This document shows positions 1-64,000 of a stretch of DNA of 64,000 bases, one piece after another. The position numbers were made by a program, and so were the translations under genes. The stretch lies in the IMG/VR virus record IMGVR_UViG_3300026522_000022, positions 66,611-130,610 of that record; one strand, 5' to 3'. How positions within the stretch are numbered: position 1 is the stretch's first letter; each line of letters starts with the position of its first letter. This stretch comes from a virus. Lineage: Duplodnaviria; Caudoviricetes. The notes under the pieces were generated by a model, which was not told where the DNA came from, searched no databases, and saw only the letters and a list, made by a program, of their open reading frames with translations.

Positions 1-274
1 TCGGTTTCCCGATATTTTAAAGGGTTTAGACTATACCATAAATTATAACATAATTTTTACAAAAATCAAATTGTTTAATTTCGCCCATTATAGTCGTTGA
101 ACGTTTCTCTGTTCTAGAGACTTCGCTGCGTCTGGTTGCCCAATCCTTAACGATTTTACCTTACCTTGGTCGCTAACCTTGCCACTAATATATCCCTATA
201 TTAGCTTGGTTGTTAAGGCTCTAAGGGCGTTCCCGCAATTTAGAGCGTTTAATGTGGGCCAGTGTTAGGTTTTA
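1..274 (-). mobile_element. Group I intron in the C-terminal nrdD gene (3' end lies beyond the window start)
   Basis: The NrdD frame stops after GTLAVG. P1 helix GUGGGU/GCCCAC has a U-G splice pair, and group I core words (TTGCGGGAA, GTTCAACGACTA, TATAGTCT) follow. Confidence 0.85.
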
Positions 275-709
275 ACCCACAGCAAGAGTTCCATGCTTAA
301 GGGCAGAACGGATTCCTTCTTCTGGGACATAACCAGCCATTACATTATTTTCATACATGAATGAAGCTGATTTAGGGTCTTGGCTACAAATCCACTCAAA
401 GCGTTCAATTAACATATCTTTCGCTTCGTGAATTTTAGTATCCAATAGTTCAAAGAACTTATCAATATCTCCCCTAGCCTCCATTGCTAAAGTGGGGAGA
501 ATAATAGTTACAGGACAGATGTTACCCCTACCGTCTTTTTGAGCTGCTGAAATGTAATTATCATATAGATGTCCTGTTTCTATTACCGATTGAACGTTCG
601 CTTGATAGGAATCGAATGCATTTACATCTGCTCCGTTCTGTGTCCTGCATCCCATGGTCGAGAACAGTTCTACTGGGGTTTCAGCTTGTTTAATTCTTAT
701 TTTTTTCAT
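275..709 (-). CDS. nrdD: Anaerobic ribonucleoside-triphosphate reductase, C-terminal polypeptide, first exon
   Basis: FSTMGCRT, GRGNICPVTIILPTLA and HGTLAVG motifs. Own ATG at 709, 1 nt after the TAA of the N-terminal part, with GAGG upstream. Confidence 0.85.
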
Positions 710-710
710 A

Positions 711-3167
711 TTAAGCATCCTCTTCATATATTTCAAGCATTAAAATATTTTGTAATTCTGGGTTTTCTTCTAATTTTGCAATTAAAATATTATATTGTTC
801 TTCTGTTAAAGAATTTATATATTCTTCTTTTTGTTTCCTATCATAATCAATTCAATCTTTTTGCATTTTAACATCGCAATTAGCATAATTGGGATATAAT
901 CTTTGAGAAGTAGACTTTAAAGCCAATCTATAAAGGTCATAGTTCGGATCACCTGGTTCACGATTAACACCTTTCATGCATTGGAAGATACCACACATTT
1001 ATACCGTTGTTTTCACAATACTTTAACGCTTATTTAAAAGCCGGATTAGACTATATCATTACTATTATAATATTTTTATAATAGCACAGGGCACTTCGAA
1101 ATTATATTGCTATAATTCTACTCCATATAGGATAGTCGTTTGACCTTATAATATTTCTTTAAAATAATAACCATTAATTGATTGTCCGTCTTGAACTCTT
1201 CTCCATAGAGTTGTAAGACTAATATTATATGCTTTTGCAGCTTTAGTTATAGAAGGAAAATTTTCAATATATTGATTGCTTTTATTATAAACAGCAATAT
1301 CATGTCCTTCTTTATCTCCAATTTTTTTGTTCCTATCATTATAATTATTATTATAAGATACGGTACACCATTCAAGATTTTCAACCCTGTTATTCGCAGG
1401 ATTTTCATCTTTGTGATTTATAATTTGATAATTATTTGGATTAGGAATAAATGCTTCTGCTACTAATCTATGAATAAAAACACGTTTTTTCTTTCCAGCT
1501 TCCGATAATACTACTCTTAAATGACCGTCCGCTGTTACTTCTGGTTTTAATATCTTTTCTTTATAATGTCTAATCCCTGTTTTTGTTTTAACGTTTCTTT
1601 CATTTGCTTTAACGTTTCCTAAATTACTAACAGAATATAAGTTATTATAAATTTTTATCCATTGTTCTTTCAATATGCTTGTCCCTCCTTTCTTGGAGAT
1701 TTTTTAAAGAAATATTATCTTGGCACAGGATTGTCATGCTTTAAGAATAATAAAGTTTAGAGTTTCCCTGTTAGCAAAAGTATCTCAATAGTCATTTCCT
1801 ACTATATTTTACTTTCACACCCGTCTCTGACGGTTCACCCTGTTTTAATTCCCCAGTGGTTATATTTTAGGGAAAATGCTAGTTTTATGAAGCTTACCAA
1901 GACCTTCAATGCTTACTTCAAGAAGTGCCTTTGTAACTAAACGACCTTCTGGTTCTGTGCAAGTACCATAGTTAATTGAAGTGAACGGTCAAATCTGTTA
2001 TCGCAAAGGCTTTTTGTCCTTTGCTTCTTATAGTTTCCTATAAGTTCAGCATATATTTTCACCTTCGCCATTGCGCGTTAAGGGCGGACACTCGTGGACG
2101 AATTATATTTATTCATCGTCTATGCGTTACGGTTCTTAATAGCCTTTCGCAATCTATTAAGTTACCTCGGGGTTAACATATCTAATGACTTAGTCCTTCC
2201 CCGATTTTGCCCGGATTTTCATAAGTATCTCTACTTAAGCAGCCACTCTTTCTAGCTGATTACCACTACGACTTTGAAGAGTATTTAAGTTATGATACAT
2301 GCCTTCAACAGCTTGACGAGTTTCTTTCTCCGTCATATCAACAGCATATTTGTATGCGGCTGGATGCATTTTATATTTTTCATCCATAACAGACATGGTA
2401 TTATTTACATCTGCTTCGAGCCCAGCTTCACAATATTTCATACCATCTAAAAAGTGCTTATAGAAGCTCTTGCGGACGTAAGGAACCATTGTTCAATCAA
2501 GATGTGTAGCTGCAACTCCGCCAAACTGTTGTAGAGACTGAAGCTGAAAAATAACAGCCACAAGCTGCATAGCTGTATTGATACTATTAGCAGGCCGCAC
2601 ATCTGTTTGTCTAGTATTAAAACCATTAGCAAGCAAATCATCAAATGGGATAGAAAGACAATTGTGTGCGCCAATCGCATATGAGTCCAAGTCGTGAATG
2701 TAAATTTCATTATTTATATGGTTTTCTCTAGACATTTTAGACACAAGATGGTCAAGAGCATATTGCTTCATAACTACATTATTAGCCTCACCCCTGCGGC
2801 CACCGAAAGAATATTCATCAACATTGGCATTTTGATTTTGGACGTTTGAAGCTAAAAGTTTTTCTTTAATTGCTTCTTCTGTCTTTTTCTTTCTAGCAAG
2901 TTCATGGTCATATCTATATCTAATATAAGCTTTGGCTTCATCAATATAGCCATTGTTAATTAAACAATCTTCAACTATATCTTGAATTTCTTCAACTGAC
3001 ACATTTTTCTTATGTAATTTTTTAATAGCTGTTTCAATATCATTTAATACTACCGCATCATCAAATTCTTTTCCTAGTTCTGTAAATGCGCCAGATATAG
3101 CAATAGAGATTTTTTCTAGGTTATATTTTACCTTAGTACCATCTCGTTTAACTACTTTTATTCGCAT
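711..3167 (-). CDS. nrdD: Anaerobic ribonucleotide reductase, N-terminal polypeptide (ATP-cone); exons 3167-2254, 1989-1869, 995-711; two TGA=Trp
   Basis: ATP-cone VVKRDG; IYIHDLD..HNC; THLD-W(TGA)-TMVPYVRKSF. Splicing restores GNQL/PFTSINYG and SIFP/CGIFQ. The exons sum to 1320 nt, in frame. Confidence 0.9.
996..1868 (-). mobile_element. Group I intron 2 of nrdD, with an HNH homing endonuclease
   Basis: P1 UUCCCU/GGGGAA, terminal G at 996, in-frame exon junction. Confidence 0.9.
1146..1673 (-). CDS. NUMOD4-HNH homing endonuclease (intron-encoded)
   Basis: YSVSNLGNV (NUMOD4) and HRLVAEAFIPNP..INHKDENPANNRVENLEW (HNH). Confidence 0.92.
   Translation of the reverse strand: MKEQWIKIYNNLYSVSNLGNVKANERNVKTKTGIRHYKEKILKPEVTADGHLRVVLSEAGKKKRVFIHRLVAEAFIPNPNNYQIINHKDENPANNRVENLEWCTVSYNNNYNDRNKKIGDKEGHDIAVYNKSNQYIENFPSITKAAKAYNISLTTLWRRVQDGQSINGYYFKEIL
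1990..2253 (-). mobile_element. Group I intron 1 of nrdD (no ORF, 264 nt)
   Basis: P1 CAGCU/GGCUG, terminal G; the junction restores GNQLPFTS. Confidence 0.88.
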
Positions 3168-3184
3168 ATATCACGCTCCATCTA

Positions 3185-3241
3185 TACTATATTTTGATAT
3201 TTTTCTATAATATATTATTTGAAAGCCACAAAATATAGATT
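3185..3241. promoter_or_regulatory. Two NrdR-box-like sites upstream of nrdD
   Basis: ATACTATATTTTGATA and (reverse) ATCTATATTTTGTGGC resemble acaCwAtATaTwGtg and lie just upstream of the RNR start. Confidence 0.5.
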
Positions 3242-3857
3242 ATACGTTTTTGGCCAAACCTTTATGTATCCCATGAATTTTAATTCAATAATATATCATA
3301 GATACTATTTTAGATGAATCTTTTTCATTATGAAAAATAAGAAAATCCTTAAAATAATCGTTTAAATATTTTTCCATTTTCTTAAAATCTTTATGGTCAG
3401 CAATAATACGTCTAATAAATTCTTTTTTAAGTTTATTTTCACGTTTTATTGACCTATTTAATCTAGTAAAAACATTTGTATCTATATATATAGGAATAAT
3501 AGTATAAAAACTTTGCAGTTCATTTAATTGTTTTAAACTTTTAGGATTAAAAATTCCAATATTTATCATAGTATCGACTATTTGAAATTTATTTGTTCCA
3601 TAATATCAATTATTAAATTTAGTATATTCTAAATACCGTCCAAATATAATATTATGCCCGAATACTTTATTAGAAACAAAATGATAATCTATATCTTGAT
3701 ACTCATCTTTTCTTCGCGGTCTAGTTGTATCGTGTAACAAAAGTTTTGAAGGAATATTATTTTTCTTTAAAAGTTTATGCAATTCTATTGCTAGAGTATT
3801 TTTTCCAGATGCAGATTTTCCTAAAAATGCTATAATTATAGGTTTAATTTTCTTCAT
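3240..3857 (-). CDS. Guanylate kinase-like protein (two TGA=Trp)
   Basis: GKSASGK P-loop, TTRPRR..E..DYHFVS, FNN-W(TGA)-YYGT. Joins ORFs 3606-3857 and 3285-3569. Confidence 0.85.
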
Positions 3858-6800
3858 CTTTTTCTCCCCAACGTTTATTAGTAAACTCTAATGTACCATC
3901 CTCGTTAATCTGAGTAATCTTATAAAGTTGGTGTGAATTTGTCTTTTTATAAGCTTTCGTAAAGAACATATTTCCACGACGAAAACCATTCACCATTACT
4001 TTTGTACCACGAGTAAACCAACCATTTTCCTTTACTTTTTTTGTTCCATCAATCTGAACTTCACTAATCCTTCTATTATACTTTGCATAATAATCACGAC
4101 TAAATTTAACTGTTACAACTCCACTGTTCGGAGTCAAAATACTAATTGATGATTTATTATCATCTTTCGCAATTACAGTCCCAACAATTCTTAATGTTTT
4201 AAAAATTGGAATCCGCACATTGTTTCTCTTAAAGGTATAATCAACAACTGGATCTTCTGGCAAATACTCATATTCATGAATATTATACTTCTCACAATCA
4301 ATATTCTTCAAAACATGTGGATGATAATAAAATCCTAAACTATCCATTTCCCAATCAGACAATGTACCTTCCGCATACTTATCCCATACCTCTTGGAACA
4401 AAGTATTATTCAATTTATTAAGAATATCTTCTTGATGCTGCTTAAAATATGTGCGGGCCGCATCCATTCCCTTATCATAAAGTTTCTTCCAAACTTTCTG
4501 ACTAATTACCAATTCACCATCAATATTTGGTTCAAGTAAATCTACATCAAAAAATTCTTCATAAAAGTCATAATAATTATCTTTTACAATAAAATCATCA
4601 CCACTTTTACAATTTGCTTTTAGTGCTTTATTAAACACAAACAATCTTTTTTGAAACTCAAGATGTTCTGGAATCAAATTTCTTTCCATTAATCCATTAA
4701 AATTTTGAAGTGTAATTCTCTTTTTTGGTTCGCAAACACTCCAAATATATTCTTTCATAATTTCTTCTCTTTTACCAAATGAATCAAATGCTCCACTCTT
4801 AATCAAAGAAATCATAACAGTTTTATTACACTTAACTTTCTGTTGAAAGTCTGTTAAACTTGCGTATGGTCTATTCGCAATAATTTGCTGAATAATTTCT
4901 CCACCAACGCCATTTAATGCCTTCATGCCGTATAGAATCGTGTCTGTTACAACATCCGGTTCAAACATATAACCAGAACGATTAATATCAATCAATGATA
5001 CATCAATGCCGCGATTAATAATATTACCTACTGCTTTTGCAATCTTACCATAGTTTGTACTTGCTTCTTCCTCCAAACCACTGTCAACTCGAAGACAAGC
5101 TGTATTCCAATAGACAGGATTGAAATAAGTTGCGAGATAAATCGTTTGCAAACCAACAAAACTATATGCTAAACTATGAATTAAACTAAAACTATCATTC
5201 ACCCTCAAGTTTCCAAGAGGAATAGACTATCTCTTACCCGCTTTCGCGGGAACACCCATTTCCAATTACGTATCAATAGTAATTGTACTCCCAGTCTCAC
5301 CCAGGATAGTCGTTACAGGTTTCTTAGTGGATATTTTATATTGTTATCTTTATGTGTTTCGCCCTTATTGATACGTCGGACTGTTTCAATAGAGCAATTA
5401 TATTTTTGACTTATTTCTGTTATTGATAAATTGTTTTGTAACAATTCTTCTTTTATGTAGTCTGCTTTATTTTTCTTTCTTATTGGATAAGTAGGATACA
5501 ATCCTTTTCTTAATTTTCCACTATTTATTTTTTTAACAGTAGAATATCCAATATTTAATTGTCTTGCTATGTCAGCTAAAGATAAATAAGATTCAGTTAA
5601 TAATTCAATTAATTCGTCATAATCAGAATCTTTTTTATAATACTGAAAAAGAGGATAATCAATATCTTCATCGTGATAATAAATTCCATGATTAACAGAT
5701 GATATAAAACTTGCACTTATATTATATTTATTTTGTAACTCATAATATTCAATACCTTGTTTTATATCTTCTTTTAATTGTTGAATTTGTTCATTAGATA
5801 ATTTACCTTCATACTTGCGAGATCCACCCAAGTCCATGTTATATCCTTGTCCAAATCCGCAATATGATTTTTTATTATCAATTCAATATTGTTCTCGACT
5901 ATTTATATAATTTTGATCATTACTAGTTCCTTGCTCCAATAAATATATATTAAAATTATTTTCTCCATATTGTCTAATTTTTTTATGAATAAGATCATTA
6001 TAAGAACTAGCATTTTTATTAAAAGCACAAGAACGATGTTCATTAATTCGACGGTTATAATTATTAGTTTGTCCGACATAATTATGACCATTAATTTTAT
6101 TTTCATAACAATATATATAATACATTTCCACCAAGCCTTCCCACGGGATTGCCATCACAAATGGGGTATATTTTATACCCTCATTATATATTAGGTTTCC
6201 CCGTTAGCCAATTATAAAAATTGACCCCGCCGATAAACGGAAAAGGTGTTTAGGGGCAAGTTTTTTGTTTACCCCATCTGCGGCTTAATTGCTGTTTCCC
6301 AAATATACGCACCAAGATTTTCTGAAGTTGCTCTATCCATTACTCTTTGATGAAGTTCTTCAATACGATTCATTTGTTTCTTTGCACAAATTTTTCTCGC
6401 ATCGTTCGCTTCTTTCAATGTAAACCCGCAAATATCTTTGTCCATCAAAATCATCATCATATCTTCTTGCTGTGCGGGCGTTGCATAAGTTGACAGATAA
6501 TACTTTTCCAATACCGCAATATCATGTTGAGTAATATGCCATCTTTTAAGCTCATCATACCAAAGATTCATATTATCCATCATTCGCTTATATCGTTCAG
6601 TCGGCGTCTCTCCACCTTTTTCTGTTGCCATCAGCCGCATACAACTATTACTGTTTGCCATTTCCTTTGGTGTGCGCGGCTGCAATGTTTTAACTGTCTG
6701 ACTTCCAACTTGTGAATCAAACTGGAATAACTTCAAAACATTTCCAGATGCTAATGTATCCCACATTTTATCATCTTGAATCGGCAAAACATCTGGATGA

Positions 6801-8741
6801 ATGTACTTATTATAAACTTCTCGCAAAGTTAATTCTGGTTCAATTTCTTCATGCTCTTGGAGCATTTGAATACACTGAACAATAACATCCTGAATTTCTG
6901 TTACAAGAAAATCATACTTTACATCACCTACATATTCCGCGTCATGAAGTGAATATTGAGTTACAATTGCTCCACTCGTTGCTTTCATAAAACATGCTGT
7001 CTTATATGGGTCATTATCATAAAAATTAACGCCTGACGCATGAATACCACGATGGTTAATAAGACCCTCAATGTTTTCAATAATATTCAAAAGTCCTGGA
7101 TACTTGTTTACTTCATTAATAAAATTCTTTACTGGTTTGCGGCCAGTCTCTTCGTTTCCATATACCAGATCATGAATCGGCCAAACAAATCCTCGCTCAG
7201 ATGGCGCAAGACTTGTCATATACTGCGCAATATCGTTGTCAATTCCATTTGGAAAACTTTCACTACGATAACCACGACATGCTGTTGCAATTGCAGAACG
7301 AGTTGACTCTGTTCCATATGTACAAACTTGAACACATCCAAGTTGTCCGCGCTCTTCACGAATCTTACTAAAAATCTTTTCTCTCTTGGATGGACAAATA
7401 TCAATATCAATGTCGGGGAGTTCTACACGATCTTTATTCAGAAAACGCCAATATGGAAGTTCATACTTAATCGGGTCAAGCTGTGTAATACCGAGAAGAT
7501 AATGATTTAATCCTGCACAAGCTGAACCACGACCCGCGCCTACTGTGCTGCCGCACTCCCAAAAAAGATTAATATAATGCTGAAGAAAGATTGGATAACT
7601 AAACATACAAGTTTCCAACTTATCTCCAATTGTTTTTTGAATATCTGCTTCCTCTTCAAGACGCTGAAGATAAACATCATTATATAAACCAAGTTCTTTA
7701 AGTTTATCTACACAATAATTAACCCAATATCTTTCTTGAATTTCGTCACTTTGATAAAGATAATCAAGAGTTTTATATCCAAGAGAAGATGAAATCTTAG
7801 GATAATTATGAACCTCTACTTGCGGCACCTGCTGTTTGTGTGCCAAATTAAAATTTTCAATCTTATCATAAATCTCTATTGTATTCTTTTCAAGTTCATA
7901 ATAATCAAGGCCAGTATCTTTAAGATTTTCAATTACTTCTTCAGTTGATTGAAGATATGCATACTCATAAAATGCATCGACTTCTCGCTCACCATTCTTT
8001 GAATTAAGATATGCTTTATGAACTTCTCTATCTGCTTTTGAAAGATAATGCGCGTCAGTTGTTACAATAATCTTAACACCAAAATATTGCGCGAGAGCTT
8101 TCATGCGGCTGTTGACAACCATCTGCTCTCTACTTCTTGCTGGCTGAACTTCAAAATAATAATCATCACCGAACACATACTTGCACCACTCAACAAAGTC
8201 AATAATTTGATTATAATACTTTGTTTTACCCTCAATGTTTCCAAGATGTTCAGCCTTGCACATTTCAAGAATACAATAATCAAGTTCTGAACCAAGACAT
8301 GCGGAGGATGCAATTAGATTTCCTCGACCATACTTTCTCACAATACCTTCGAGGTCACTTTTAAGAGTTGGAACCCTCTCCATACCACGGTCATAATAAC
8401 TATTCATCCATGCAATAGACGAAAGTTCACGTAACATTTTATGTCCTGTTGCATTCTTTGCAATCAAGATAAAATGATAATATTTTTGCCCAGTTTCTCT
8501 CGTATCAGTAAGATAAATTTCATTACCGAGTGCTACTTTAAAATCAGGATATTCTTTCGCAATTTGATGACGATATTTATCTATAACCACATGACCGCCG
8601 AGAGACTCGTGATCCGTAACGGCGATCCCCGTAAGTCCAAGTTCAATTGCTCTATCTATAAGTTTTTCTGGGAAGTTAATTGAGTCAAAGTAAACGAATA
8701 TTGCTGTACATTGTATGACTATGCAGCTCCATCCTACCCAA
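3844..8741 (-). CDS. dnaE: DNA polymerase III alpha subunit; needs a +1 frameshift at 8690-8684 and splicing of intron 5196-6270
   Basis: PHP motif HSHTMYS..LL/DSIN..GIAVTDHE, GRGSA, PDIDID, HASG, MG/YSFSLIHS. Segment lengths are in frame after one skipped base. Confidence 0.9.
5196..6270 (-). mobile_element. Group I intron in dnaE
   Basis: P1 GGGGU/GCCCC, terminal G; the junction restores MGYSFS. Confidence 0.9.
5313..6125 (-). CDS. GIY-YIG homing endonuclease in the dnaE intron (TGA=Trp at 5885-5883)
   Basis: YIYCYENKING..YVGQT..R..EH; REQY-W(TGA)-I..GYN; C-terminal HTH repeats. Confidence 0.85.
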
Positions 8742-13562: not shown

Positions 13563-14636
13563 TTATAATATCACCCTATTTCTAAATAAATATAAAAATT
13601 TGTCTTTTCCACAATCTAATGGAGAATCTTTATACCCTAGTTGATTATTTTCTTTATCAAACAAGAAACTAATTGTTACATATGGACTATATTTATCATA
13701 AATTTTTTGTAATTTATCTACGACTTTATTGTACTCTTCTGAATTTATTTCGTCAAAATCTTTATCGAATCCAATGATAACTTCATGTGCGCCGCATTCT
13801 TCTAACAATTGAAATTGATATTTTGATAATGAGCTGCCGCACACAGCGACGCATATATTTGACATAGTTCCAAAATAACTCATAAACTGTAAAACAGATT
13901 TTTCAGATTCAACTACAAGAGCTACGCCCATATCTTTAATATTGTCTTTCGCTTTATCTAATCCATATAAATTAAAAGCCAAAGGATGATTGCAGAGTTT
14001 TCCTCTTATTTTGGTTGGTCTATATTTACCATATTTTTCATCCTCTTGGACAAGAGTTCTTTGTCTAATACCAACCAACCTACCATTTTCATCTTTATGC
14101 GGAATTAAGATAACCCCATTTTCTGGATTATATCTTATCCCCATATAATCACAAATTTCTTTTTTAATTCCTTCTTTATACCAAGGAACAATTAAAGGTT
14201 GTGGATAATTAATTAAAACTGATTCGTTATATTCTGGCAATTCTACTTTTTCATTATTAATTTCAATGTCGTTAATTTTATCATAACGACTAAAAATCTT
14301 CCAATCTTCAATTGTAAAATCATCATCAGCTTCGCTAATTTGACTTTGAAGATTGAAGAAATTAACTACAAAATAGATTGCCTTATTTAGATCGTCAATC
14401 TCTCTAACCTTTTGGACTAGTTCAAAAACATCAAAACTGCCGCATGAACCTGTATAACATTTAAACAACTGTGTATTCTCATAGTAATATAACTTATGTG
14501 AATCACCATTATGACAAATAGTCTTTGCTACAATATAATTACTATACATTTCTGGTTCAGCTTCAAAGAAATCCAATAGAGAGTAAATATCTTCTAGTTC
14601 AAGATTTTCTTTAACTATTTCTTTACTATAAGACAT
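13563..14636 (-). CDS. DNA primase (Zn finger plus TOPRIM)
   Basis: CH..C..C Zn-binding region; NLYGL, VESEKS, GFDKD; next to the helicase. Confidence 0.85.
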   Translation of the reverse strand: MSYSKEIVKENLELEDIYSLLDFFEAEPEMYSNYIVAKTICHNGDSHKLYYYENTQLFKCYTGSCGSFDVFELVQKVREIDDLNKAIYFVVNFFNLQSQISEADDDFTIEDWKIFSRYDKINDIEINNEKVELPEYNESVLINYPQPLIVPWYKEGIKKEICDYMGIRYNPENGVILIPHKDENGRLVGIRQRTLVQEDEKYGKYRPTKIRGKLCNHPLAFNLYGLDKAKDNIKDMGVALVVESEKSVLQFMSYFGTMSNICVAVCGSSLSKYQFQLLEECGAHEVIIGFDKDFDEINSEEYNKVVDKLQKIYDKYSPYVTISFLFDKENNQLGYKDSPLDCGKDKFLYLFRNRVIL

Positions 14637-56453: not shown

Positions 56454-56525
56454 CTCCTTTTTTTATTGCACTTTAGCGCAATATATTTTGACTTTTGATT
56501 TTGAATGTGGTATAATATAAATAGT

Positions 56526-56806
56526 AAAAAACCTATGCTAACTGGTTAAAAAACCTATTACAACTAGCAAAAAACCTATTATAACTAGTAAAAAAACCTA
56601 TGCTAAATAAAAAAACCTATTACAACCTGTTAAAAAACCTATGCTAATATTAAAAAAACCTATGCTAATATGCTTAGATTTTTCGTTTCTTATATGCTGG
56701 GCGTGTGATGTCGTATAACAACTGCAAAAAACCTATGCTAATATGAAAAAAACCTATGCTAACTAGTAAAAAAACCTATGCTAATGGGTAAAAAAACCTA
56801 TTACCC
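56526..56806 (+). repeat. Iteron-like array of 11 x AAAAAACCTAT(GCTA/TA), probable replication origin
   Basis: Direct repeats about 20-23 bp apart in blocks of 7 and 4, upstream of a Rep-like gene. Confidence 0.75.
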
Positions 56807-56934
56807 TAAAAGACGAAAAGACGAAAGACGATAAAAGACCCCGGTTTTTTCTGCGAAATGCAGAAAAAACGCTAAGCTCACTACGTTCGCTTAGCTGATT
56901 TAATTTTAGAATTTTGATTTTGAAAGGAGGAGTA

Positions 56935-57708
56935 TTGACGAAAGAAGAGTATATTATGTTAGATATTCATCCTGATAATATGAAAGAAAAGAATTATAAT
57001 TTGAGAGGAATAGCATTAAGTAATTTTTTAGGTACTGTAGATCTTGCTACAAATCAAAGAATAATAGAAAAGTCAGAGTTTATAGGTCAATTAAAACAAA
57101 TATTAAAGTTGACTAAATATAAGTGTAAAGTTATAGTTCAGACTTTCTTAGATTTGAACATTATAGAAGAAGATAATAAGTATTATTATATTAATCCTGT
57201 AAGCAGTAATTTTTTAAAGTTGGTTGTTCCTACTGCTAAGTATTGTATTAATAATTTGAGTGATTTTTGTTTTAAAGTTTATTGTTATATGTTAAATAAG
57301 TATAATATACATATGGCGTATAGACATTATGAAAATTATTTTTTTTCTTTTAAAGAAGTTTTAAATGATTTAGGGTATAGTAATTATGCGGCTAATATGA
57401 ATATGTTACAACAGGCATTAACTACCTTAGAAGAGTTAGGTTTTATAGAGTATGAGCATGAAGCTAAAGGTAGGCCAGGTAAGCATGGGACATATCATGA
57501 ATTGTATAATGTAAATCAGATTGCTCCTGTTCAAGTTAAAGCTGCTAAGAATTATATTAATAATGGATATGAAATTACAGAAGATATTGTTGAGGATGTA
57601 TTATTGCCTGATGCGGAGGTAGCTAAGGCATGGTTAGAGTCTGGAGCATATGATATGAAAAGTTTACCAGATTCTTATAGAAAGGCGTATGAGAAAAATT
57701 ATGGTTAA
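56935..57708 (+). CDS. Putative replication initiator (tandem winged-helix)
   Basis: FKVYCYML, LNDLGYS..L..LEELGFIEY; adjacent to the iterons. Confidence 0.55.
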   Translation: MTKEEYIMLDIHPDNMKEKNYNLRGIALSNFLGTVDLATNQRIIEKSEFIGQLKQILKLTKYKCKVIVQTFLDLNIIEEDNKYYYINPVSSNFLKLVVPTAKYCINNLSDFCFKVYCYMLNKYNIHMAYRHYENYFFSFKEVLNDLGYSNYAANMNMLQQALTTLEELGFIEYEHEAKGRPGKHGTYHELYNVNQIAPVQVKAAKNYINNGYEITEDIVEDVLLPDAEVAKAWLESGAYDMKSLPDSYRKAYEKNYG

Positions 57709-58842: not shown

Positions 58843-59266
58843 AAAAGTTAAAAAAGTTTAGTTTTTGAATTTTTTCTTTCTTTGTTCTTTGATAATCGTA
58901 TATTTTTTGAAGTTTTTTAACAATTTTCATTTTGAAATTTCATTTTGAATTTTCATTTTTAAACATTTCTGGTTAAAAAATTTCATTTTCATTTTCAAAC
59001 CAAGTTAAAAATAATCATTTTCAAAACAAAAATTTTATGGTATAATAAATGTATAAGAGAGAGGGAAAAAAGAAAGTACATAATTTGAGATTTACTTCTT
59101 CTCTTGAGCACCTTAAAATTTCTTGTTGACAGCAGTTGAAAAACATGCTATAATATATATGTAAGAAAAAGGTAAGGAAAGTAAGGAAGTTCTGACACTG
59201 GTAAAGAGGGGATGGCCTCCCCTGAAAATAAGGAGCCTCAAGAAGGGGCAGAAAAGGAGAACTACA

Positions 59267-59605
59267 ATGGCTGAGAAGATTACCCGCAAGGACCTGTTCG
59301 CTCGTATCGCTGAGACGATGGCCGATGACCCTGAGGTTGTTGAGATGTGCGAGAAGTACATTGCCCAGCTCAGCAAGCCTCGCGTCCACAAGACCAAGCC
59401 CGAGGTTGTTGAGTTCCGTGCGGCCGTCGCGTCTTACCTCGCTGAGGCTGAGGGCCCGATGACCAACAAGGAGCTGGCTGCTGCGATGGAGTGCAGTGCT
59501 CAGAAGATGGCGGCTGCGCTTCGCTACCTCGTCGGTGAGGGTCTGGTCTCCCGCACCGAGGGCGAGAAGAAGAATGACCCGGCCACTTTCGTGGCTATCG
59601 CCTAG
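59267..59605 (+). CDS. Winged-helix DNA-binding protein, early type
   Basis: MTNKELAAAMECSAQKMAAALRYLV.EG; GC-rich. Confidence 0.7.
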   Translation: MAEKITRKDLFARIAETMADDPEVVEMCEKYIAQLSKPRVHKTKPEVVEFRAAVASYLAEAEGPMTNKELAAAMECSAQKMAAALRYLVGEGLVSRTEGEKKNDPATFVAIA

Positions 59606-59702
59606 AACTTAGGCACGAGGACTGCCCTAGCAGTAGAGGTGCGGGGAGTGGCTAGGGACACTCCCCATCATAAAGACCATGACATAAGCAAGGAGACAGA
59701 TC

Positions 59703-60104
59703 ATGAAGTATACCTTCACCACTGAGACAGGGACAGAGAAGACGATCAACATTCCGGACAGTGTATTTGTGCAGGGCCGCAAGGAGGGTCTGAGCCAGCG
59801 GGAGACGATCGATCGCTACCTCAGTGATGAGGGTTATATTGTTGACCCTACTGTCGCTGAGCTGACGGAGAAGGCAAAGGCTAACGGGACTGGCCTCAAG
59901 GCTCGTACTGGGAAGCGTAAGGCTCCCACCCGCAAGCCAGACGAGACGAAGCGTGCGCTGATCGTTGCTCTGAATGATTTTCTCTGCGATTATGCGGGGA
60001 CTAAAGATGTGACGGTTACGAACATCGAGCGTATAATTGCCTTCCGCATCGGTGACGATAATTATGAGCTTACCCTGAGCAAGAAGCGTAAACCGAAGGC
60101 TTAG
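59703..60104 (+). CDS. Hypothetical phage protein
   Basis: AGGAG SD; RKPDETKR..NIER.I.F. Confidence 0.7.
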   Translation: MKYTFTTETGTEKTINIPDSVFVQGRKEGLSQRETIDRYLSDEGYIVDPTVAELTEKAKANGTGLKARTGKRKAPTRKPDETKRALIVALNDFLCDYAGTKDVTVTNIERIIAFRIGDDNYELTLSKKRKPKA

Positions 60105-60417
60105 GATCGAGCTATACCCCTTTCATAACGGGTAGCGTGAGTCATGGCACGCCCCGGCCCCTTTCTCGAGAAGCGTCGCGTATGCGGCGCTTCTTTTTTT
60201 TTTATTTGTTTATTTTGTGGAGCGAGGAAAAGAGGGCGTATAGAAAATTTGCTCTTGACAGAACGACTGAAATATGATATAATTAAAATGAGAATTATTT
60301 TTTTTAAAAAAAATTTTAAAGTTTTAGGAATCGGGAAAATTATAGCTTTGCGTCGTATATCGCCAGTTCTATGAAAATGGGGCGTATAGCGCGTGCCCAG
60401 CCCACGACCGACCACGG

Positions 60418-60448
60418 CGAACATCTGTTCGATGCGAACATTTGTTCG
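60418..60448. promoter_or_regulatory. Tandem Gram-positive/actinobacterial LexA boxes (third copy at 62157-62170)
   Basis: CGAACATCTGTTCG, CGAACATTTGTTCG and CGAACAAATGTTCG match CGAAC-N4-GTTCG exactly. Confidence 0.75.
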
Positions 60449-60462
60449 ATAGCGAATGCGGC

Positions 60463-60618
60463 TGACAAATGTAAGCCTTTATATTTGTAAAGGTTGACAA
60501 ATGTAAGCCTTTATATTTGTAAAGGTTGACAAATGTAAGCCTTTATATTTGTAAAGGTTGACAAATGTAAGCCTTTATATTTGTAATGGTTGACAAATGT
60601 AAGCCTTTACATTTGTAA
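60463..60618. repeat. 32-bp tandem repeat, about 5 copies, of CopY/BlaI-type boxes
   Basis: Unit TGACAAATGTAAGCCTTTATATTTGTAAAGGT; GACAAATGTA matches KACAnnTGTA. Confidence 0.8.
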
Positions 60619-60980
60619 AAAGTTAGATGCGGTTAACTTTTTGGTGCAACTTTACATAAGATGCTATATCATGCATTTTTTGAAAAAATGCATAAATAGT
60701 TGATAATATTCAAAATAATGCATAAAAAAGAGAAATATGCATGATTAATGCATAACTTTACTTTACATAAGATATTATATCATGCGTTTGCGGGATACCG
60801 CTCACCGACGATTTGCTACCGTTCACCGGTAGGGGTCTTTTTTTTACTTGAAATTTGTGTTAAAATTTTCGGCCGCCCAGGAAGTTAGCCTTGGTTAACT
60901 TTTAGGCAAAGAAAACCCTACCGATTAGGTAGGGTTTTAGTAGTATGAGCGGGTAGGGCTTGCGCCCTACCCCTTGGCCG

Positions 60981-61358
60981 CTAGGCGCGGGTGTAGGTCA
61001 CCTTGCGCCCGTCTACGACCTTGGAGATAATGCCCATCTCCACACCCACGCGGGCGACGGCAGCGGCCTTCTGCGTGGTAAGCACGCCGCGCACGTGCTC
61101 GGTAACCCATTTGGCCGTGACTTCGGCTCCCTCGGGGATAGCGGCCGCGAGCTCGCGGGCAAGTCGCTCGTTATCCTTGCGGGCCTTGCTCGGGCCCTCG
61201 GACTTAGCGCGAGGCTTCGTGATGCTGGCGCGCATCTTCTCAAGAATCTCGATGGCTTCATTCGCGCCAGTCTTCTCCATATCACCCATGCAATTTGCAG
61301 TGATGTTATCAATTGCGAACTCGATAGCCTGTGCACGGGTCATTTTCTTCTCTGCCAT
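60981..61358 (-). CDS. Early-type hypothetical protein, winged-helix-like
   Basis: MAEKKMTRAQ..; GC-rich; downstream terminator hairpins. Confidence 0.65.
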   Translation of the reverse strand: MAEKKMTRAQAIEFAIDNITANCMGDMEKTGANEAIEILEKMRASITKPRAKSEGPSKARKDNERLARELAAAIPEGAEVTAKWVTEHVRGVLTTQKAAAVARVGVEMGIISKVVDGRKVTYTRA

Positions 61359-61663
61359 GGTAAACCTACTTTCTGTCTCGGGTGGGTGAGGGCTTGTCCC
61401 TCGGGCTGTCCCCTTTGACATTTACTAGTATAGCAGGTTTGCGGGGGACTGCAAGCGGGATTTTTTGAATAATTCACAAAGGTTTATGCATTTTTTGGCC
61501 GATTTTTTGCATAAAATACATTTAATATGCATCAAAATGCATAAAAGGGTAGAAAAAATTCATTGAAAAAAATTTTTCCACAAAATGCGGCAAGTTTTTC
61601 ACACCCTTGGGAAAAACTGTGAAAAATTTTTACATGAACATGTGAGCATATGTTCATATGTTC

Positions 61664-61815
61664 CACTATTTCACTCTACTGCGGTGGAGTATCTAAATCC
61701 TACTGCTCAAGTATACTTTACCACTCTACTGCGCTAAAGTGCATAATTCCTATTAACTTTGTGCACTTTACTACTCTACTGCGGTGGAGTAACTAAATCC
61801 TACTACTTTAGTATA
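61664..61815. repeat. About 50-bp repeat x3 carrying the CACTCTA-N6-TGGAGT palindrome
   Basis: Copies at 61672, 61722 and 61772; more near 63089 and at 63815-64000. Confidence 0.75.
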
Positions 61816-62212
61816 GTTTCAGATCGGATCTAGTTCTTACAAATGTAAAAAGTTAACCTCGGTTAATTTTTCAGCCGCCCCCGATAAAATAATATCACAC
61901 TTTCAAGGTTGAGCGCATTTAAATTTCAACTTTTTCGTGAACGGTGAACTCTTACAAACGTAAATTTTTTGTTAACCTTGGCTAACTTTTTCGGCCGACT
62001 ATGACAAATGTAAAAAGTTAACCATAGCTAACTTTTTAGAATCCCCCGATTTATGATACTACAAGTTAGTTGCGGGCACAATACCCTAATCGGTGAACGG
62101 TAGTATTACATTTGAAAAATTTAAGTTAACCGCGGCTAACTTTTTTCGGCCTCAGACGAACAAATGTTCGATGTTTCAAAACTGTTAAAAGTTAATCAAG
62201 GTTAACTTTTAA

Positions 62213-62228
62213 CTTTTCACGTGAAACA
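62213..62228. promoter_or_regulatory. parS-like site (also 62697-62712 and 63345-63360)
   Basis: TTTCACGTGAAA core; this copy matches TGTTTCACGTGAAACA at 14 of 16 positions. Confidence 0.65.
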
Positions 62229-62255
62229 AAAAAGCCCGCTTGCGCGGGCTTTCTT
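62229..62255 (-). terminator. Intrinsic terminator (copy at 63361-63386)
   Basis: AAAGCCCGC-ttgc-GCGGGCTTT flanked by A/T runs. Confidence 0.8.
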
Positions 62256-62930
62256 TTAACGGTTGTACTGTTTGCGCCATGCCTTGAATTTAGGCTGGCA
62301 AGCGATGTAGGCATTAGATACCGGCTCGGTATTCATGCGGGCGTGTTGTCTCAAAACCTTAAACAGAATCGCCGCTTCGAGTTCGGCATCCGCAAGCGCA
62401 GTGTGCTCCTCCTCAAAGTTGGCATCTTGAAGAACATACGCGCCAACGCTGTTAGCATTTGTGCGAACGTTACCCGAATCACTCACAAAACCGCAAACCG
62501 TCGCAAACTTGAAATAGTTACGGCTATTGCAGATGGTTTGAGCGGCGGCGGCGTTGATGCAATGCCACGACATGCCAGCGGGGAGAAAATCGCCGTCATA
62601 GGTGGCATTCAGTGCGCTAATATCGGCCATTGCGTAATAGGCCCAAACCTGCGAAACGTTGAACGCCCTGCAAGCATCAAGGAACAGGGCGCGGGCGTTT
62701 TCACGTGAAACGACACGGGCCGCGCCCGTCTCAATTGCCGCGATGTAGGCGGGGAGCTTGTCCGCATAATGAGCGGTACGCATATCGTTTTCAAGGATAG
62801 TTTCGGCGATGATGGAGCGGGCGCGAGTGACAATTTCGCCCGTCTTGTCGTTCATGATACAAAAGCCAAAGTCATAAACGGCCTTACGCGGGACGGTCAA
62901 AAACTCGGTGTCGATGATTGCACGGTACAT
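62256..62930 (-). CDS. DEDDh 3'-5' exonuclease
   Basis: IIDTE, AY.A..D, HTALADA. Confidence 0.8.
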   Translation of the reverse strand: MYRAIIDTEFLTVPRKAVYDFGFCIMNDKTGEIVTRARSIIAETILENDMRTAHYADKLPAYIAAIETGAARVVSRENARALFLDACRAFNVSQVWAYYAMADISALNATYDGDFLPAGMSWHCINAAAAQTICNSRNYFKFATVCGFVSDSGNVRTNANSVGAYVLQDANFEEEHTALADAELEAAILFKVLRQHARMNTEPVSNAYIACQPKFKAWRKQYNR

Positions 62931-63405
62931 TCAAAACCCCTTTCGTTATGTTTTAACCTAGTAACTATGTTAGCAGAACGCCGACCAAAAGCAAGCATTT
63001 AGGAGGATACAAAAAGTTTAACAGTGAAACTGTTTGTATCTTGACATTTATGTAGTGCGGGGTGTAGAATTTTCGGCCGACCGCTATCACACTCTACTGT
63101 GATGGAGTGCAAATATGAATTTACAATTGTAAAGGTAAAGTTAACCTTGGTTAACTTTTTCAGAACCCCCCGATACCTATTCTACTACTATTAACGCTTG
63201 AGTACAATACCCTAATTCGGTTTTAGGAAAAATTTAAGTGCATTTAATATTAGATACGTTTGTAAATTTAAACTTGATAGGTAAAGTATAGATTTCGCGG
63301 CCGACTATGACATTTGTAAGGGTTCATATTTGTAATAGTTTAAGCTTTTCACGTGAAAACAAAAAAGCCCGCTTGCGCGGGCTTTTGTTGGGGCTTTTGT
63401 TTGGG

Positions 63406-63687
63406 CTAGATATCGTAGCTGGCATACCCAACAATGACCTTGCAGTCCTCGAAGTAGTAGTAGTTGTAGAAGTCCTTCTCGACCTTGTCCGCGCCCTCGG
63501 CGAGCAGTCGCTCTACGCGCGCGACGGCGTTCTCGTCGTAGTCGGCCATGGCCTCGTTCCAGTCCTCGTCAAACCCGTTGAAGTCCTCGACGGTAGCCCA
63601 AATGGTGTCCGCATACTTGCTGCCGCCCTCATGGAAGTAGACGTCCTCGCAGCTCTTCAGAATGGTAATGACCTCGTTGCGCTTCAT
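63406..63687 (-). CDS. Acidic early-type hypothetical protein
   Basis: AAAGGGG SD, promoter, GC-rich codons. Confidence 0.7.
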   Translation of the reverse strand: MKRNEVITILKSCEDVYFHEGGSKYADTIWATVEDFNGFDEDWNEAMADYDENAVARVERLLAEGADKVEKDFYNYYYFEDCKVIVGYASYDI

Positions 63688-63814
63688 TTTGAACCCCTTT
63701 CAATCTTTAACCTTACAATACTAATTATAGTCATTGCGGGTCTGATTGCAATAGGTTTTGGAAAAATTGTTTATTCTATTTTGAGAACAATGTTTAACTA
63801 AACTCAACTGCTTT

Positions 63815-64000
63815 TGTTTACTTTAATACTCTACTGTGGTGGAGTAATTAAACTTAATTGGTTTTGTTTACTTTAGCACTTTAGTGTGATGGAGTAACTA
63901 AATCCTAGTAGTTAAGTATACTTTAGCACTCTGCTGTGCTAAAGTGATTAAAGTAGATAGATATTGTTTACTTTAGCACTCTACTGCGGTGGAGTGAATT
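63815..64000. repeat. About 50-bp repeat x4 (continues past the window)
   Basis: TACTTTAGCACTCTACTGCGGTGGAGT consensus. Confidence 0.75.

Follow-up and report, generated by a model that had tools for sequence, protein, structure and literature searches.

Reused promoters, terminators and dyads in the early-gene module of a recoded rumen phage, with possible gating by host LexA

We analysed a window of 64,000 nucleotides, which forms the last 64 kb of a single phage contig of 130,610 bp (IMG/VR record IMGVR_UViG_3300026522_000022). Positions are those of the window, whereas "genome" coordinates (L001) refer to the whole contig. Between 60418 and 64000 the window holds small early genes, and the spacers between them are filled with palindromes, tandem repeats and promoters; curated genes take up 37% of this region, compared with 92% cover by open reading frames (ORFs) in the rest of the genome. 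Two dyads and one type of promoter recur in a group of related phages, namely CGAAC-N4-GTTCG (the LexA-type box), GTTAR-N6-YTAAC (the GTTAR dyad) and a promoter that has no ORF behind it and opposes the early genes (the ORF-less promoter). An initial annotation had taken the region for a zone near a genome end on which many different host DNA-binding proteins are loaded.

The early-gene module and its place in the contig

The genome has a GC content of about 33% and carries a tRNA cluster, a ROOL RNA and genes for DNA polymerase, topoisomerase II, helicase, primase and ligase, which is the replication gene set of a large lytic phage (code 4 was applied in translation where needed). The stretch from about position 59100 up to the end of the contig and the stretch over genome positions 1-7000 differ from the rest in layout and composition. 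Within both parts there are small genes with 50-60% GC, mostly on the minus strand, with AT-rich spacers between them.

For comparison we used a related IMG/VR contig of 50.9 kb (L002) and further related loci (L005, L010-L015). In L002 the same module lies internally as one stretch of about 8.6 kb. The flanking sequences share 74-77% identity with the two opposite ends of the present contig, while the inside of the module is a mosaic. Since the present contig stops inside a tandem array of 50-nt units (the last row of Table 1) and the module of L002 is internal, the "genome end" of the initial annotation is an assembly break. By this comparison, the region 60418-64000 is the left part of a putative early-gene module of about 11 kb that spans the contig junction. 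The first 111 bases of the contig (L001:1-111) match the middle of a cassette in L002 (15053-15162), so the assembly probably lacks a short piece of the module. The source DNA run yielded no usable pieces that span the contig end, IMG/VR classifies five related records as linear without end repeats, and we were not able to find similar DNA in the phage record collection.

The relatives of the endolysin place the host in the Bacillota and no finer; together with the sigma-A-type promoters and the GAAAGGGG ribosome sites they point to a Bacillota host. The difference in GC content between the early genes (window 59100-64000 and L001:1-6700) and the genome as a whole is a separate observation: early genes may be tuned to the codon use and tRNAs of the host and later genes to the tRNAs of the phage, in which case the host would be a GC-rich species of Bacillota.

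Every early gene comes with a separate sigma-A-type promoter and a hairpin terminator, and its ribosome-binding site is strong. Consensus promoters and the RNA data would agree with early expression by the polymerase of the host. RNA contigs from two rumen metatranscriptome runs (X2 and X5), data that consist of contigs only and give neither strand nor ends, cover three module genes. They span 59016-60159 (the operon with the A-type winged-helix gene, at the highest depth in the stretch), 60945-61449 (the B-type winged-helix gene) and 63478-63628 (the 93-aa gene).

Promoters, dyads and repeats in the spacers

Repeat searches and the comparison with relatives have shown that the spacers consist of about ten short element types, reused in differing orders. 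Counting matches of at least 18 nt with at least 80% identity, 17% of the spacer bases match the other half of the module, 17% match L002 and 13% match distant relatives, the corresponding values being 0% for the non-early DNA of this genome and 0.1-0.2% for shuffles. Where the present phage has a spacer of 900 bp, L002 has two genes between the same landmarks.

The ORF-less promoter is a strong one and consists of a consensus -35 sequence TTGACA, a TG-extended TAAAAT and a fixed start TTTTCGSCC. We found 36 copies at 11 loci in at least nine phages, and every copy opposes the early genes; the present genome has five copies, which all lie in the module and on its plus strand. Behind the 36 promoters we see a GC hairpin in seven cases, a LexA-type box in six and a GTTAR dyad in four, or else another short palindrome. 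The six LexA-type boxes begin 6-11 nt past the conserved start, and conserved boxes sit in general at about +6 to +25. The palindrome is followed by the two-way terminator of the next gene. Further LexA-type boxes stand in tandem without a clear promoter, and at 61988 and 62143 the start segment occurs without its promoter, which looks like a recombination scar.

A promoter at L001:4640-4930 and L002:17365-17500 leads into an ORF-less stretch that contains a block of 53 nt, in which the two phages are 90.6% identical. This block, which could fold into a hairpin with G.U pairs, ends at a terminator, and in L002 a LexA-type box comes after it. We regard this stretch, for which there is no match in Rfam, as a candidate small RNA.

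To control for chance, we compared the counts in the spacers with 1000 dinucleotide shuffles. The LexA-type box was observed three times (0.00 expected), GTTAR-N6-YTAAC seven times (0.04), ACANNTGT 13 times (0.68), ATGCAT eight times (0.52), TTCACGTGAA twice (0.00) and TTWTNCACA three times (0.40, with 7 of the 1000 shuffles reaching three). Furthermore, all four LexA-type boxes and 12 of the 13 GTTAR dyads in the genome lie inside the early module. Given this excess and this confinement, the density of protein-binding-type dyads, which the initial annotation had pointed out, is real. Note that the counts do not represent independent events, since tandem and dispersed copies of a few cassettes make up much of the excess.

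Most of the coordinates in the initial annotation were right, while several of its labels were loose. The three exact LexA boxes (60418, 60435 and 62157) are there, as are the ArgR-like word TGCATCAAAATGCA (61528-61541), the ArsR-like GAACAT palindrome (61636-61663), the three TTCACGTGAA cores of parS type (CACGTG; 62216, 62700 and 63348) and the two XerD-arm words, which turned out to be ACTTTACATAA (60649 and 60760); another candidate word for the XerD arm, TTATGTTAA, does not occur in the region. On the other hand, of about 15 proposed CopY/BlaI-type boxes only three fit TACANNTGTA. The loose core ACANNTGT accounts for 13 sites, which are the ten arms of the 5 x 32-bp tandem repeat and the centres of the three LexA boxes. 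The GTTAR palindromes have a spacer of 6 nt instead of the 5 nt given, and the eight that had been listed are seven exact copies and a near-copy at 61850. Three TTWTNCACA words (61574, 61595 and 61618) had been called DnaA consensus matches; the words exist, but the strict DnaA box TTATCCACA has no site in 60418-64000, one word having one mismatch and two words having two. The site of Spo0J/ParB, parS, is a 16-bp palindrome (TGTTNCACGTGAAACA), of which the parS-like sites match 14, 13 and 12 positions; one of them lies inside a gene and the other two are copies of a single terminator cassette.

Table 1. Features of the early module in the window, from left to right
Feature	Position	Strand	Description
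Plus-strand operon	59126-60195	+	promoter, A-type winged-helix gene 59267-59605, 133-aa gene 59703-60104, terminator 60168-60195; from promoter/terminator scan
ORF-less promoter	60255-60283	+	consensus TTGACA-17-TATAAT with TG extension; points into repeat field
Tandem pair of LexA-type boxes	60418-60448		CGAAC-N4-GTTCG, 17 bp from start to start
Five tandem 32-bp units ("cop-box" array)	60463-60619		each a palindrome with 10-bp arms, ACAAATGTAA / TTAYATTTGT
GTTAR-N6-YTAAC dyad 1	60620-60641		
Composite element	60649-60789	+	two 30-nt direct repeats starting ACTTTACATAA, 111 bp apart, around five ATGCAT words
ORF-less promoter and dyad 2	60858-60903	+	TG-extended TAAAAT 60858-60866, start TTTTCGGCCG, GTTAR dyad 2 at 60882-60903
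B-type winged-helix gene	60981-61358	-	125 aa, about 60% GC; from alignment, AF2 model and Foldseek
Three ATGCAT words	61486-61542		include "ArgR-like" TGCAT-N4-ATGCA; common to L002 only
Three CCACA/TCACA ("DnaA-like") words	61574-61626		none fits TTATCCACA
GAACAT/ATGTTC palindrome cluster ("ArsR-like")	61636-61663		made of LexA-box half-sites
Three 50-nt tandem units	61664-61819	+	an 18-nt hairpin in each
GTTAR dyads 3-5	61832-62036		at 61850, 61969 and 62015; TTACAWWYGTAA-type word before each; promoter-less TTTTCGGCCG at 61988
GTTAR dyads 6 and 7 with LexA-type box 3	62123-62210		dyad 6, TTTTCGGCC, LexA-type box 62157-62170, dyad 7 at 62189-62210
parS-like 16-mer (14/16)	62213-62252		fused to GC-rich two-way terminator; cassette duplicated at 63345-63386
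DEDD-type exonuclease-like gene	62256-62930	-	224 aa; paralog at genome 2304-3068
ORF-less promoter, hairpin and dyad 8	63041-63159	+	TTGACA-18-TAGAAT (63041-70), TTTTCGGCCG, hairpin 63088-63111, TTACAATTGTAA, GTTAR dyad 8 at 63138-63159
93-aa early gene and promoter	63406-63751	-	gene 63406-63687, promoter 63724-63751
Tandem 50-nt hairpin units	63795-64000	+	at least four units, cut by contig end

Eight further early modules were fetched by alignment of the winged-helix proteins of the module. CGAAC-N4-GTTCG is present in seven of these eight and GTTAR-N6-YTAAC in six, and five related contigs (50-125 kb) contain 21 exact LexA-type boxes, 20 of them in the module, compared with one site in a reversed-pattern control. 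The two dyads are kept across most of the related phages sampled, whereas most of the other words are found in few relatives or none. TACANNTGTA, ATGCATAA and TTCACGTGAA are absent or nearly absent from the eight further modules; CopY-type sites occur in L002, with none in six of the eight distant loci and one or two in the other two. We were not able to find parS-like sites in L002 or L005, nor any TTWTNCACA word in the L002 module; the parS-like sites are private to the present phage, like the 32-bp array. Only one to three close relatives share the cop-, ArgR-, ArsR- and dif-like words. A dif site has two 11-bp arms around a 6-bp centre, and the ACTTTACATAA 11-mer presumably resembles one such arm; no second arm is evident beside it by eye, with no scan run. 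In five elements the word forms direct-repeat pairs that are 73-113 bp apart.

Several of the features in Table 1 can be followed into the relatives. L002 has the first pair of LexA-type boxes in the syntenic position as well, inside a block that is 84.6% identical, and 61847-61898 matches L002:12382-12433 with 82.7% identity. The promoter at 60858 has a syntenic counterpart in L002 with a full -35 sequence, and the L002 composite that is syntenic to the ArsR-like cluster (14093-14150) holds a GAAC-N4-GTTC core. The segment of start plus box in 62123-62210 is a copy of one behind the promoter at genome position 1874. The 32-bp array is missing at the syntenic place in L002, and L005 has a 32-bp array of different sequence after a promoter. 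L002 has the ACTTTACATAA paired repeat in two places (with the repeats 113 bp apart), and L012 and L013 have it in one place each. The DnaA-like words resemble the paired words TCYCCACAA..TTCACAA beside the LexA-type boxes of relatives, the most distant one included.

Two additional families of words were seen near promoters. TTTCATTTTGAAA-type palindromes are repeated upstream of the A-type operon (58913-58997, and also L002:9180-9290 and L005:2570-2770), forming a 6 x 32-bp array in L005; they are a further family that is operator-like in appearance. GTGAACGG and CCGTTCAC words come as pairs about 20 nt apart near gene promoters (60793-60835, 61937-61958 and 62092-62105), with nine sites in L002 and others in several distant relatives.

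Among the proteins, the plus-strand operon gave weak Pfam matches of MarR/TrmB type. The 224-aa protein matched the Pfam family Rv2179c-like with E 2.5e-5, just under the curated cut-off, and phrog_20187 with E 1.6e-25; a tblastn search found one or two copies of its gene per related module, and peptide patterns gave no relative on viral contigs. For the eight other small early proteins Pfam returned nothing, save a sub-threshold NT5C match of the HAD-like one. This HAD-type phosphatase (L001:1198-1671) has a weak match to 5'-deoxynucleotidase, and the module also holds two paralogs of DEDD type. Such nuclease and HAD-phosphatase genes recall the nuclease and deoxynucleoside monophosphate (dNMP) phosphatase functions that are expressed first in T5.

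Candidate binders and readings of the module

The present phage has three paralogous winged-helix genes, one of A type and two of B type, the one listed in Table 1 and one at genome 178-525. Related modules have two to four B-type paralogs each and, in most of them, an A-type gene, and the family comprises at least 697 unnamed metagenomic members. An AlphaFold2 (AF2) model of the B-type protein (pLDDT, a per-residue confidence score, of 85) shows a helix-turn-helix with a wing. Foldseek gave only generic winged-helix matches to this model, none of them below E 0.001, with MecI as one of many weak ones. Similarly, a profile of the family searched against the PDB sequences gave weak matches of ETS/PU.1 type only, and we found no LexA_DNA_bind signal in the winged-helix proteins of the phages.

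The full GTTAR dyad is AAAGTTARCC-N2-GGYTAACTTT. Its arms are fixed, over 59 sites, across phages whose proteins are 27-50% identical. The R/Y pairings occur as expected if the two positions are independent (A/C 22, G/C 15, A/T 12, G/T 10), although this covariation test would be weak where transcription may run on either strand, and the RNA stem has an energy of -6 to -7 kcal/mol. We have set aside the reading as a hairpin or terminator, since the arm sequences are conserved, the stem is weak and no covariation is seen at the variable positions. The dyad fits better as two half-sites for a dimeric protein, and the likely binder is one of the phage's own multi-copy winged-helix proteins.

The LexA site of Bacillota is GAAC-N4-GTTC, usually CGAAC-N4-GTTCG (PMC4234289). 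The LexA-type boxes keep exactly these arms with a varying centre, and they are often in tandem; the host to which the comparison refers is placed only as Bacillota. Of the many host proteins suggested by the initial annotation, LexA is the sole one whose site is credibly matched, with the box conserved in 9 of the 10 related loci counted; most of the other words fail the consensus, the conservation or both. We see roughly even odds that the binder is host LexA, the alternative being a winged-helix protein of the phage.

The elements are observed, as are their excess, confinement, conservation and positions, and from these we infer the binders and the effect of binding. The region would be a hyperplastic early module of host-takeover type in a lytic TGA-recoded rumen phage of a Bacillota host; it would be run by promoters, terminators and repressor sites that are the group's own, possibly with gating by host LexA. 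We give this reading a probability of about 0.6. The two group-wide dyads would act as operators, with a winged-helix phage protein on the GTTAR dyad and host LexA, or another such protein, on CGAAC-N4-GTTCG. A repressor on the palindrome just past the start would decide whether the opposing ORF-less promoter fires. Firing would damp the adjoining early units by convergent transcription or by short antisense RNAs, so that operator occupancy would set the timing of the opposing promoters and, with it, the timing of early damping. The shared elements of 20-50 bp would serve as crossover points, which shuffle genes and leave gene-less cassettes behind; such leftovers of recombination, as we propose, would be the reason why there are far more sites than genes.

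Several points weigh against this reading. Any binding and any transcription start are predictions, and the products and effects of the ORF-less promoters are putative. The 5 x 32-bp array, the hairpin arrays of 50-nt units and the ACTTTACATAA pairs have no place in the model. No X2 or X5 RNA contig covers the spacers 60276-60743 and 61450-63470, which is not evidence of silence. The locus L011 has winged-helix proteins and no boxes within 16 kb. Furthermore, winged-helix genes and boxes occur together partly by construction, because the loci were found by searching with the proteins.

A more specific version goes further than this, and we consider it speculative and rather doubtful as a whole. 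In it, a group of lytic recoded rumen phages has wired host LexA to gene-less promoters that face the early genes; cleavage of LexA, perhaps as a result of the phage attack on host DNA, would clock early shutdown, and winged-helix proteins on the GTTAR dyads would form a second layer.

The explanation closest to ours is that CGAAC-N4-GTTCG is the operator of a phage winged-helix protein and not of host LexA, its likeness to the SOS box being convergent or a mimic; we regard it as a serious possibility that falls somewhat short of an even chance. The boxes do travel with a multi-copy winged-helix family, their four central bases are alike within one phage (AWWT in the present phage and in L002, ACYA in L010-L015), the palindrome often reaches past the 14-mer to AATCGAAC..GTTCGATT, and phage GIL01 provides the precedent of a phage-encoded LexA-like binder (PMC6182141). 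However, the invariant parts are exactly the arms of the Bacillota LexA site, with a centre that varies as it does in host SOS boxes (PMC4234289), and neither the profile search for LexA_DNA_bind nor the generic Foldseek matches speak for a LexA-like protein of the phage. Another explanation, to which we give a clearly smaller weight and which seems unlikely to us, is that the spacers are mainly non-coding RNA genes, whose short hairpin-rich RNAs act in trans or as antisense, the palindromes being RNA hairpins. The layout of promoter, 5' hairpin, body and T-tailed hairpin would suit such genes, as would the conserved 53-nt block behind its promoter and the small RNAs in the early terminal repeat of phage K (PMC9241854). 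Here the 18-nt hairpin of the 50-nt arrays deserves attention: its 12 copies are all on one strand, they are 88.5% paired, three pairs have changed on both sides, and G.U pairs outnumber A.C pairs by 12 to 2. This hairpin may act as RNA; since its copies are duplicates of one another, the pair counts carry little weight. Against the explanation as RNA genes, searches of the spacers with Rfam gave nothing at the gathering threshold or at E values up to 1, many cassettes carry only a hairpin of about 30 nt between the promoter and the end of the next gene, and the GTTAR arms keep their sequence instead of covarying.

We find it improbable that any of the 5 x 32-bp array, the ATGCAT block and the 50-nt units serves as a replication origin or as a site of packaging or partition. 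The 32-bp array is phased at three helical turns, adjoins an AT-rich block and lies about 350 bp past the winged-helix operon, the contig breaks in one of the arrays, and the top Foldseek match is the centromere binder TubR. That match has an E value of only 0.02, however, and is no better than many other winged-helix matches, the 32-bp array is missing from the nearest relative at that place, and a better candidate for an origin lies 3 kb upstream, where 21-22-bp tandem repeats (56518-56801) precede a 264-aa gene. This neighbouring stretch (56518-57708) has about 11 such repeats, and its 264-aa gene has no family match; it is a better origin candidate than the arrays of 60418-64000. Very improbable to us, and the least probable of all, is the original idea of a zone close to a genome end that loads many host proteins or serves as their decoy, acting as a ratchet, shield, localiser or repressor sink. 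The site density far above chance would agree with it, and so would the exact and often tandem LexA-type boxes, of which L014 has up to five in 160 bp, and the repeat-rich untranslated region of T5, whose DnaA boxes were proposed to halt DNA entry (bioRxiv 10.1101/866236). On the other hand, most of the eight host-factor labels fail the consensus, the conservation or both, the module is internal in relatives, and promoters that face both ways are unfit for a one-way transcription ratchet. The boxes lie behind a conserved promoter, where operators are placed, and the phages encode winged-helix proteins of their own, neither of which suits a ratchet, a shield, a localiser or a titration device. 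Titration of LexA in particular is conceivable, though nothing in the present data argues for it.

If operators behind opposing promoters do control the module, this bears on how such regions are read. In uncultured phages of gut and rumen, early takeover regions are as a rule dismissed as hypothetical genes, whereas the non-coding half of this one would have a small, conserved and testable grammar that consists of a single promoter type, two dyads and one family of proteins. Should LexA bind, lytic phages would be using the SOS repressor for timing and not for a lysogeny decision. The conserved opposing ORF-less promoters would be a compact natural case of control by convergent transcription, and for this recoded phage group the promoters and operators point to a host in the Bacillota.

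Relation to known phage systems

The injection-stop region in the left terminal repeat of T5 (bioRxiv 10.1101/866236) resembles the present region in being an untranslated stretch, rich in repeats and palindromes, among the first-expressed genes, with look-alike boxes for host factors that are conserved in the group. In T5 this is one large untranslated block with eight ordered DnaA boxes and a mapped genome end, whereas the elements described here are spread over every spacer, and the DnaA-like words fail the consensus.

GIL01 is controlled by host LexA together with gp7 and the LexA-like gp6, and its LexA boxes stand in tandem at promoters (PMC6182141). Both are phages of Bacillota with GAAC-N4-GTTC boxes at promoters, some of them in tandem, and the small DNA-binding protein of GIL01 that works beside LexA would have a candidate counterpart in the winged-helix proteins. 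However, GIL01 is temperate and its boxes repress gene promoters for lysogeny, whereas the present phage looks lytic, its boxes follow ORF-less promoters and its winged-helix proteins have no homology to LexA.

A similar layout is known from SPO1's host-takeover module (PMC6873191; Stewart et al. 1998 cited there). Both modules are clusters of small early genes of about 12 kb with many short operons in a large lytic phage of Bacillota, and both have promoters and ribosome-binding sites typical of highly expressed genes. The likeness rests on layout and not on protein homology, and about half of the present module is non-coding. We know of no LexA-type boxes or opposing ORF-less promoters in SPO1, for which no exhaustive search was made.

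The PeSL promoter/terminator cassettes, which shuffle early genes in T4-like phages (PMC2839356, PMC4122927), are short conserved cassettes of promoter plus hairpin that flank small variable early genes. The same holds here, where we found a conserved promoter and stem-loop on the flanks of variable early genes; in both systems conservation is higher in the cassettes than in the flanked genes, and the gene content is mosaic between relatives. The two systems differ in that the best-conserved promoter of the present module is gene-less and opposes the genes, that the host is Gram-positive, and that recombination at the cassettes would follow here from the mosaic order and the promoter-less and gene-less copies. 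Finally, the stem-loops of PeSL are free in sequence, whereas the dyads of the present group are conserved in sequence.

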